Shown: one piece after another, positions 760 to 2,825 of the stretch
Numbering within the stretch: position 1 is the first letter of the stretch
Layout of the letters: each line of letters begins with the position of its first letter
NCBI GenBank assembly: GCA_048941285.1
Contig: JBHLNS010000007.1
Location: 32,351-96,350 of the forward strand
From: Promethearchaeota archaeon
GTDB taxonomy: Archaea; Asgardarchaeota; Lokiarchaeia; Sigyniarchaeales; SOKP01
Length of the DNA: 64,000 nucleotides
Direction: 5' to 3'
The notes under the pieces: generated by a model
Database searches by the model: none
What the model saw: the letters and a program-made list of their open reading frames with translations, nothing else
What the model was told of the DNA's origin: nothing
Program-made: the position numbers and the translations under genes

Positions 760-2825
760 TTAAATATCTAATGTTTTAACTTCATCAAAATTACTAATAA
801 TAAATTTTTTACGAGCCTTTACTTCTTTACCCATTAATTTCGTGAAGATTAAATCATTTTCAATATAATCTTCATATGTTACTTTTTTTAGTTTTCGTGT
901 TTCTCTCTTCATTGTAGTTTCATATAACTCATCAGAATTCATCTCACCGAGTCCTTTGTATCTTTGAATTTTAATCGTTTCTATATTCTTGAGTTTATAT
1001 TTATGCTTAATCGTTTGAAGATAATTCTCCTTTTCTTTATCTGAATACACATAATCTTTTGAATTTTTATAAGATACTTTATATAAGGGGGGTACTGCGA
1101 TGTATAAATGTCCTTCATCTATTAAAGGTCTTAAATATCGAAAAAAGAAAGTAAGTAATAATGTTTCAATATGAAACCCATCAACGTCAGCATCACACAT
1201 GATAATAACTTTATGATACCTGAGTTTACTTAAATCAAAAGTCTCTTCTGCATCATCGCCGTTTTCATCAGACTCACCATTAGAACCATTTAACATACTT
1301 TCCTCTTGAATTCCAACCCCTAAGGCTTTGATAATAGACTGAATTTCATTATTTTGTAATACTTTATCAATCCTAGCCTTTTCTACATTCAATATTTTTC
1401 CTCGAATAGGAAGTATTGCTTGATATGTTCTGTCTCTCCCTTGTTTCGCAGGTCCACCTGCAGAATCACCTTCTACAATAAATAGTTCTACTTTTTCTGG
1501 ATCATTTGATGAACAATCAGCTAATTTTCCAGGCATTCTTGCACTATCTAATGCTGATTTCCTACGAATTAAAGCTCTCGCCTTTTGAGCTGCTTCTCTA
1601 GCTAATTTAGCGTTAATTGTTTTTAATACAATTTTTTTTGCTGTATCTGGATGCTCTTCGAAATATTGAGTTAATCTATCAGTAACGATTTGACTTACTA
1701 TCTGTCTAAGTTCAGGATTTCCTAGTTTAATTTTAGTTTGACTTTCAAACTGAGGATCTGGAAGTTTAACTGAAAGTACGGCTGATAATCCTTCTCTTGT
1801 GTCACTTCCACTTAATACATGTTCTCTATATTTCTTTTCCATATAGCTCTCAATGTAGGAATTAAATACTCGAGTTAACGCGGATTTAAATCCAGTCAGG
1901 TGCACACCACCTTCAATTGTATTAATTGTATTTGCATAAGTTAAAATATTAGCTTGATATCCTTGATTATATTGCATTCCTAACTCAACGTAAAAAATAG
2001 AGCCGTCTTCATCTTCAATAGAATCATTTATATGAATTATATCGTTATGAAGAGGTTGTTTATCCTTGTTTAGATAAGAAATGAATTCTTTAAGGCCTCC
2101 TTCATAATGGAATTCTTGTTTTTCATCATCAAATTTATTATTAATTTCAAATCTAGTATGAGGAGTGAGAAATGCTAGTTCTCGCATTCTATTACTTATA
2201 GTATGAGCATTGAAAATTTGTCCATTGGGTTCAAATTCAAAAATCTCACTATCAGGAAAAAACCTTATTTTAGTATAAGTTTCGTCTCCATTGATAGTTG
2301 TTATTTCTGGTTCAGAGACTTTTTTACCTTTAGAAAATTTCTGCTTGTAGCAGTAACCATCTCGACAAACCTCTACATTCATCCATTCTGTTAATGCATT
2401 GACAACTGATAATCCAACACCATGTAATCCTCCTGAAATCTTATAGCTTTTACTATCAAATTTACCTCCTGAATGCAAGTATTCCATTATCACTTCCAAA
2501 GCAGGTTTGTTAAATTCTGGATGATTATCAATGGGAATTCCTCTCCCGTTATCATGAACCTGAACTGAATTGTCTTTATATAGTGTTACTCTTATTTCAT
2601 CGGCATACCCACCCATTGCTTCGTCAACAGAATTATCTAAAACCTCAAAAATGAGATGATGAAGACCATGTTTACCTTGATCTCCAATATACATTGCGGG
2701 CCTACGTCTTTAGCGACTCAGCGCGAATCGCGCAGATTCTTCATGATCTATAGAAGTGAGTTTACGCCTTCAAGGCCCTTCAGAACTTTAATATCCTCTG
2801 CATCATAAACATCTTTATCAGGCAT
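760..2825 (-). CDS. gyrB: DNA gyrase subunit B, split gene: exon 1 2763-2825 (21 codons), exon 2 760-2709; spliced product 670 aa
   Basis: GHKL motifs ([24 protein letters not shown]), Toprim EGDSA and [15 protein letters not shown]. The missing N-terminus [21 protein letters not shown] is encoded at 2763-2825 and joins RRRPAMYIG once 2710-2762 is removed. Confidence 0.93.
2710..2762 (-). other. 53-nt bulge-helix-bulge (BHB) type mRNA intron in gyrB
   Basis: Central 4-bp helix GGCG/CGCU, bulges UAA and AAA, inner helix ACUCA/UGAGU, exon-exon stem GGGCCU/AGGCCC (separated from the core by an imperfect segment). Cleavage after the 2nd nt of each bulge gives GTA|AGA and restores the frame. Confidence 0.85.

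Follow-up and report, generated by a model that had tools for sequence, protein, structure and literature searches.

The 64,000-nt stretch of DNA analysed here (the window) comes from a Promethearchaeota archaeon (assembly GCA_048941285.1, contig JBHLNS010000007.1, positions 32,351 to 96,350) and carries a gene for the B subunit of DNA gyrase, gyrB, that is split close to its start by a 53-nt insert. We consider it highly likely that this insert is an archaeal bulge-helix-bulge (BHB) intron within a protein-encoding gene, predicted to be spliced by the tRNA-splicing endonuclease EndA together with RtcB. As judged from the DNA, an essential enzyme very probably depends on RNA splicing in this organism. 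The evidence comes from the reading frame, from the predicted structure and from the comparison with gyrB genes of related species.

A predicted BHB intron splits gyrB

The insert was noticed in a first reading of the window made without database searches (the sequence-only reading), which described 53 nt with TAG as the fifth codon of the insert, bounded by a relaxed BHB motif. It proposed that cuts after the second nucleotide of each bulge join the exons in frame into a GyrB of 670 amino acids, and that unspliced RNA yields a peptide of 25 amino acids or a GyrB lacking its N-terminal strap. All of these points held in our analysis. The sequence of the insert is as described (Table 1), and the 63 nt of exon 1 and 1947 nt of exon 2 add up to 670 codons of GyrB. 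Cutting after the second bulge base is in agreement with the available part of PMC2738675, where introns of the archaeal cbf5 gene are cut between bulge bases 2 and 3. In gyrB it joins the exons in frame and restores the conserved junction ...LEGV-R(R/K)RPAMYIG (the hyphen marks the joint): exon 2 begins 15 nt ahead of the Met codon at 2694, and the codons upstream of this Met read R-R-R-P-A. Without splicing, exon 1 continues into a 25-aa open reading frame (ORF; 2748-2825) that is ended by the TAG after four insert codons.

The gene was identified by database matches. Exon 2 has the Pfam domains HATPase_c, DNA_gyraseB, Toprim and DNA_gyraseB_C, and an intron-less orthologue has PDB matches up to E = 1.5e-61. 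The genome (a 3.55-Mb assembly with 29.7% G+C, estimated to be 94% complete) contains one gyrB and one copy of the insert, for which BLAST with 76 nt gave one match.

Folding of positions 2690-2785 to the minimum free energy (MFE) reproduced the proposed bulge-helix-bulge geometry in the window copy, with a 4-bp helix (H) between two 3-nt bulges. The inner helix extends into a small hairpin, which lies beside the GC-rich hairpin at 2721-2733. The coordinates of all elements are given in Table 1.

Table 1. Elements of the gyrB locus and of the predicted BHB motif, in positions of the window
Feature	Position	Strand	Description	Basis or remark
gyrB exon 1	2763..2825	-	21 codons, ATG at 2825 to Val codon 2765-2763	N-terminal arm
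BHB-type intron (predicted)	2710..2762	-	53 nt (not a multiple of 3), in-frame TAG as 5th codon	
gyrB exon 2	760..2709	-	649 codons and stop	Pfam on 644-aa part from 2694
Helix H, 5′ strand	2765..2768	-	GGCG (Gly codon and first base of Val codon), 4-bp helix	MFE fold, pairing statistics
Helix H, 3′ strand	2712..2715	-	CGCU	MFE fold, pairing statistics
5′ bulge	2762..2764	-	3 nt, UAA, unpaired; predicted cut between 2763 and 2762	fold and cbf5 cut rule
3′ bulge	2709..2711	-	3 nt, AAA, unpaired; predicted cut between 2710 and 2709	fold
Inner helix, 5′ strand	2757..2761	-	ACUCA, 5 bp; 4/5 pairs with changes on both sides	fold, comparison
Inner helix, 3′ strand	2716..2720	-	UGAGU	fold, comparison
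Intron hairpin 1	2739..2756	-	CUUC...GAAG; homologous to sole hairpin of 30-33-nt introns	
Intron hairpin 2	2721..2733	-	GCGCG-AUU-CGCGC; limited to 52-53-nt form	
Outer exon-exon helix, 5′ strand	2771..2778	-	GGGCCUUG; two unpaired A between helix and H	
Outer exon-exon helix, 3′ strand	2698..2706	-	CG-U-AGGCCC, one bulged U	
gyrA, 5′ part	3..713	-	directly downstream of gyrB, extends beyond window edge	Pfam DNA_topoisoIV E = 2.3e-94

Same-site introns in related gyrB genes

We collected gyrB 5′ ends from four sources: 41 relatives, the whole genus of the window organism (43 of 54 genomes had a gyrB match), a named collection with 60 loci, and 151 genomes of the order searched with a covariance model. 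Inserts at the same site were present in 23 distinct gyrB genes, that of the window and those of 22 related species, from three genera of one Promethearchaeota family. Most of them are 53 nt long (13 genes), the others measuring 52 nt (one), 33 nt (three), 31 nt (one) and 30 nt (five). The two forms are homologous, and what the long one has in addition to the short one is the GC hairpin with a spacer. No gyrB insert was seen in 54 distinct genes of the same family and 10 from other families of the order; of the 43 genomes that matched gyrB in the window organism's own genus, 12 have the intron.

Cuts that fall exactly two bases past H and two past its partner strand H′ restore the frame in 23 of 23 genes, across intron lengths of all three classes modulo 3. 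The restored sequence is M...YDA(E/D)DI.VL.GL(E/D)GV-R.RPAMYIG in every case. An in-frame stop lies inside each of the 23 introns, including the eight whose length is divisible by three. Exons 1 and 2 are intact in all intron-bearing genes.

Pairing statistics were obtained from a MAFFT alignment of the 23 sequences (A2). Paired cells amount to 96.7% in helix H and 89.7% in the inner helix. Four of the five inner pairs vary on both sides, and one pair occurs as CG (7), UA (6), AU (2), GC (2), GU (1) and UG (1). Neither the observed pairing nor the covariation score was attained by any of 500 shuffles, and when the partners were slid by 1-3 columns pairing was 19-48%, compared with 93% in the true register. 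Helix H is completely paired in 20 of the 23 sequences. The outer exon-exon helix was found in all 23 intron-bearing genes; among the 19 rows of alignment A1, it is closed by C-G or U-G in seven and by A-G in 12.

On its exon side the motif consists of codons, so it is synonymous codon choice that maintains the helix. The Gly codon in H is GGC or GGT in all 23 intron-bearing genes, whereas the 54 intron-less genes use GGA (25), GGC (15), GGT (10) and GGG (4), that is, GGY in 25 of 54. The predicted exon-flank duplex has a mean energy of -12.8 kcal/mol in genes with the intron versus -6.1 kcal/mol in those without (Mann-Whitney p = 4e-11, which is overstated since the sequences are related). 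These patterns show that synonymous exon sites are constrained in intron-bearing genes.

Further claims of the sequence-only reading could be followed here. It had assigned the DNA to an Asgard archaeon, and the closest gyrB genes in the named collection indeed belong to metagenome-assembled genomes (MAGs) of Promethearchaeota/Promethearchaeia, including Loki_b31 and Loki_b32, which places the organism in the Loki lineage of the Asgard archaea. It had suggested looking among relatives for inserts at the same site with covarying BHB pairs, which is what the 23 genes contain, and checking the insert in DNA reads: a 284-nt contig of the public DNA run X2, possibly the source sample of the assembly, spans 2626-2909 without gaps and includes it.

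The only intron difference in X2 is an A-to-G change at plus-strand position 2712, by which the G-U pair of H becomes G-C; three related species have the same state. Labels given to relatives by some submitters differ (Hermod-, Hod-, Thor- and Odinarchaeota). One locus, L087 (DATKTW010000028.1), is labelled Candidatus Nanopelagicaceae bacterium; its gyrB is 76% identical to that of the window and nests among Promethearchaeota genes, and we regard it as probably a mislabelled or mis-binned MAG.

Several observations weigh against a BHB intron and have to be set beside this evidence. Two exon-side positions next to the 3′ bulge are mismatched in the window copy (A-G and A-A); because these mismatches separate the outer helix from the bulge, the motif is relaxed and not canonical, as the sequence-only reading had noted. 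The folding energy is unremarkable (z = -1.2), and 22 of 200 shuffles fold equally well; the significance of the site derives from its geometry and the comparison with relatives, not from folding energy. Helix H has one mismatch (3/4 paired) in three sequences, and the full helix with both bulges free appears in only 11 of 23 MFE folds; for the remaining sequences, constraining the fold to the BHB costs 0.1-3.3 kcal/mol over the MFE. Relatedness among the sequences inflates the significance given by the shuffle controls and by the rank test, and all data come from MAGs. Finally, the RNA contigs of three runs leave 2555-2887 uncovered, so none crosses the junction: X18 and X19 gave near-identical short contigs within gyrB only (2021-2530), and X20 only upstream (2910-3060).

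Splicing machinery and tRNA genes

A search of the genome for EndA gave two PF01974 matches above the cut-off. They correspond to two paralogues of 197 and 201 aa, 34% identical, each with PF01974 and PF02778. RtcB is also encoded (567.7 bits). The catalytic triad of EndA consists of Tyr, His and Lys; one of the paralogues keeps the His in the aligned stretch and the other is without it, a difference in keeping with one subunit being catalytic and the other structural. Asgard EndA is described in the available part of PMC5829648 as an (alpha-beta)2 enzyme with an L1 loop conferring broad specificity, and broad-specificity EndA is reported there to accept relaxed motifs. According to the accessible part of a 2026 preprint (10.64898/2026.10.13.758758), 44 of 60 Asgard genomes have two EndA paralogues, and interruption of tRNA genes is heavy. 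In the genome studied here ARAGORN found only 13 tRNA genes, seven of them with introns, and most tRNA genes are presumably hidden from the program by multiple introns or introns at odd positions, a situation that the preprint describes for Asgard archaea.

The window itself contains a tRNA at 45823-45924 on the minus strand (102 nt, anticodon loop CCC, Gly) that has an Rfam match and went undetected by ARAGORN. About 30 extra bases lie between its T stem and T loop; this insert is probably a non-canonical BHB intron in the T arm. The tRNA introns speak for heavy use of BHB-type splicing in this genome, which counts in favour of a BHB intron in gyrB.

The predicted structure and the gene content together point to dependence of gyrB on EndA and RtcB. 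In the mechanism that we propose, the gyrB-gyrA transcript would fold locally so that the end of exon 1 pairs with the 3′ end of the intron into the 4-bp helix. There would be a 3-nt bulge on each strand, with the intron-internal helix closing one side and the exon 1-exon 2 helix the other. The heteromeric endonuclease formed by the two EndA paralogues would cut after the second base of each bulge, and RtcB would then join the exons and probably circularise the 53-nt intron. Cleavage, ligation and the circular intron are predicted steps. The full 670-aa GyrB with its N-terminal arm would be made from spliced mRNA only, as translation of unspliced RNA would stop after 25 codons.

Alternative explanations

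The alternative that survives best, improbable as we judge it to be, does without splicing. Translation would begin at the internal Met at 2694, giving a GyrB that lacks the N-terminal arm. Exon 1 would then represent either a relic or a small ORF upstream of the gene, with the hairpins forming a structure of the 5′ leader. ORF callers, including the mechanical ORF list for the window, do give the 644-aa frame from 2694, and spliced RNA is unseen, given that the RNA contigs do not cover the junction. However, this Met belongs to MYIG and is a conserved internal residue in all uninterrupted orthologues. Exon 1 of the intron-bearing genes keeps the peptide VLKGL(E/D)GV as in uninterrupted genes, and over the eight codons before the junction variation is 0.060/0.005/0.321 at codon positions 1/2/3. 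Variation mainly at third positions is unlike a relic in 23 species; it is the signature of translated sequence and shows exon 1 to evolve as coding sequence. The arm region also aligns with residues resolved in GyrB structures: in an intron-less orthologue, the residues equivalent to exon 1 align from residue 5 of the Thermus GyrB chain 6enh. The arm, with Tyr5, is said to be implicated in ATPase dimerisation. PMC4159350, in its available part, names the N-terminal arm of GyrB and a Y5S mutant.

We give still less weight to a mainly regulatory role, in which EndA cuts the transcript, only a fraction is ligated and splicing throttles gyrase. The cbf5 intron has been suggested to act as a negative regulator (PMC2738675, available part), removal of the intron in the 5′ untranslated region (UTR) of Haloferax HVO_1309 affects expression (PMC7714728, available part), and intron-bearing and intron-less gyrB alleles coexist among close relatives. 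Such throttling would be compatible with the splicing of a BHB intron and nested inside that explanation.

Ribosome hopping over the 53 nt is very unlikely. The known case, phage T4 gene 60, is a 50-nt translational bypass in a gene for a topoisomerase subunit and needs matched take-off and landing codons. Like it, the gyrB insert leaves a gap of some 50 nt in the coding sequence, close to a hairpin and again in a gene for a type II topoisomerase subunit, with a stop soon after the take-off point and local secondary structure. Unlike in gene 60, the landing codon matches the take-off codon in none of the 23 gyrB genes (GTA/GTT versus TAA/TAG/CAG/CAA/TAT/TAC). The gaps also vary from 30 to 53 nt, and conserved BHB geometry and pairing are not needed for hopping.

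A pseudogene, an assembly artefact or a mobile-element insertion has just as slim a chance: a stop and a frameshift do interrupt the gene, in a MAG with 3.4% estimated contamination, but the same-site insert recurs in 23 independently assembled genomes and in the contig of the DNA run, the exons are intact everywhere, no second gyrB was found in the insert-carrying genomes, gyrA is intact next door as far as the window extends, and the single copies of gyrB and insert do not fit the multicopy miniature inverted-repeat transposable element in a dead gyrB that the sequence-only reading had considered as a possible refutation.

Genome-wide scan for further introns

A strict BHB scan of the 3.55-Mb assembly covered both strands. 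It asked for pairs of cut sites in which all 4 bp of H are formed, each bulge measures 3 nt, at least 4 inner pairs are present and the intron is 16-150 nt long. It also demanded that a long ORF be restored across an otherwise broken frame and that the exact motif appear in the MFE fold. The 43,209 raw candidates were reduced to 5,812 by the ORF logic and to four by the MFE fold, among which the gyrB site ranked first. The other survivors, C101:4109-4220 (+), C1:53689-53791 (-) and C80:4672-4745 (-), were rejected, as they bridge neighbouring genes of which the second has its own start. The strict scan thus gave no other credible BHB intron in a protein gene of this genome, with the limit that relaxed introns could escape the exact-MFE filter. 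Paralogues of the intron were not found in the genome beyond the gyrB site by BLAST with the 76-nt query, by a regular expression for the hairpin or by R1, a covariance model of the intron; a loose pattern for hairpin 2 occurs at three places, in intron context at gyrB only.

Distribution and history of the intron

R1 was also run on wider samples of genomes, with the stricter filters of Infernal on. In the order sample it matched 21 of 151 genomes, once in each: ten of 52 in genus g1 plus the genome of the window, six of 42 in g14 and four of eight in g16. Under these filters the 19 genomes from three further families of this order gave no match, and gyrB may be absent from many of them. The phylum sample gave one match each in six of 151 genomes and none in 125 genomes of 26 other families, where the same limits of filter and of possibly absent gyrB apply.

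In a quick maximum-likelihood tree built from the initial 330 residues of GyrB (86 rows, 19 of them intron-bearing), the presence of the intron needs 18 state changes, partly on weak forks. Well-supported sister pairs with and without the intron include L006/L011 (support 99) and L043/L055 (95). When the 170 nt ahead of the junction are used for the tree (72 rows), seven changes suffice, and its starred branches force at least two. The history of the 5′ cassette differs from that of the gene body, which argues for recombination.

The gyrB of the window is itself a mosaic. Its identity to L004, an intron-less sister, is 87-93% in the body and 66% in the 5′ region; with L006 and L034, which bear the intron, the values are 88% for the 5′ region and 76-81% for the body. 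In the comparison of 2698-3000 with L004, L006, L033 and L034, leader, exon 1 and intron group with the intron-bearing species, and the gene body with an intron-less one. This pattern points to a recombination breakpoint near the intron.

The simplest reading of these data would be an old intron that has also undergone precise losses and whose 5′ cassette is exchanged through homologous recombination. A more specific scenario is possible, if on balance doubtful: the 5′ cassette (leader, exon 1 and intron) may have passed between species and may persist as obligatory EndA/RtcB splicing couples gyrase synthesis to the RNA-processing state of the cell.

Surroundings of gyrB

The ORF adjoining gyrB has a GyrA N-terminal domain, and gyrA is intact as far as the window extends. 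The upstream neighbour of gyrB is a gene for a pterin-binding enzyme, which is common to intron-bearing and intron-less alleles. About 115 nt ahead of the start of gyrB (within 2826-2945, minus strand) there is an AT-rich box, ATATATTTAAA, which occurs at a similar distance in intron-less relatives; it may be the gyrB promoter, implying a leader of about 90 nt.

Comparison with known systems

The closest counterpart is the cbf5 intron of Crenarchaeota (Desulfurococcales and Sulfolobales), which according to the available part of PMC2738675 is likewise a short BHB intron in a protein gene, cut between the second and third bulge bases. Its motifs are often relaxed, it is linked to hetero-oligomeric endonucleases, and it has been lost in some lineages (same source). 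The gyrB intron differs from it in host gene (a bacterial-type gyrB), in lineage (Promethearchaeota) and in its position 21 codons from the start. It has two length classes that differ by an added GC hairpin, is much patchier among close relatives and bears signs of recombination of the 5′ cassette. Spliced cDNA has been shown for cbf5, whereas the gyrB intron is known from DNA alone.

With the BHB introns of archaeal tRNAs and rRNAs the gyrB intron shares the 4-bp helix, the two 3-nt bulges, the flanking helices (the outer one relaxed beside the 3′ bulge in the window copy) and the presumed use of EndA and RtcB. Unlike there, the exon parts of its motif are coding sequence; and while its geometry is shared with tRNA introns, no other locus of the genome resembles it in sequence.

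HVO_1309 of Haloferax volcanii is also an mRNA substrate of the splicing endonuclease. Its 46-nt intron was confirmed by circular RNA sequencing and in vitro, and, unlike the gyrB intron, it lies in an untranslated leader and leaves the reading frame uninterrupted (PMC7714728, available part).

Eukaryotes process HAC1/XBP1 mRNA by a route of their own, in which Ire1 cuts at stem-loops, tRNA ligase joins the exons and the process is regulated by stress. What it has in common with the splicing predicted for gyrB is independence from the spliceosome, with an endonuclease cutting at stem-loops and exons of a protein-coding mRNA being joined; the endonuclease, the recognition motif and the stress regulation set it apart.

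Implications

The sequence-only reading knew of no report of such an intron in gyrB or in Asgard mRNAs. In the full-text literature we likewise found no earlier account of BHB introns for gyrB or for any mRNA of Asgard archaea, most subscription journals and supplements lying outside the scope of that search. As far as the available part of PMC7714728 goes, the cbf5 intron is the only one known in an mRNA besides the 5′ UTR case described there. In the literature searched, BHB introns that interrupt a reading frame have so far been documented for one gene, crenarchaeal cbf5. A second host gene would mean that mRNA splicing of the tRNA type is not a one-off, and here the gene is essential and the host an Asgard archaeon.

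The finding also has practical consequences. Gene callers begin intron-bearing gyrB genes at the internal Met, which is a systematic annotation error if the intron is spliced as predicted. A 97-nt substrate would provide a simple handle on the substrate range of Asgard EndA. The 23 natural variants and 54 intron-less sister alleles form a comparative system for the gain, loss and transfer of introns. Should the transfer of the 5′ cassette between species prove true, the gain, loss and lateral spread of an intron in a protein gene would have been caught in action in Asgard archaea.

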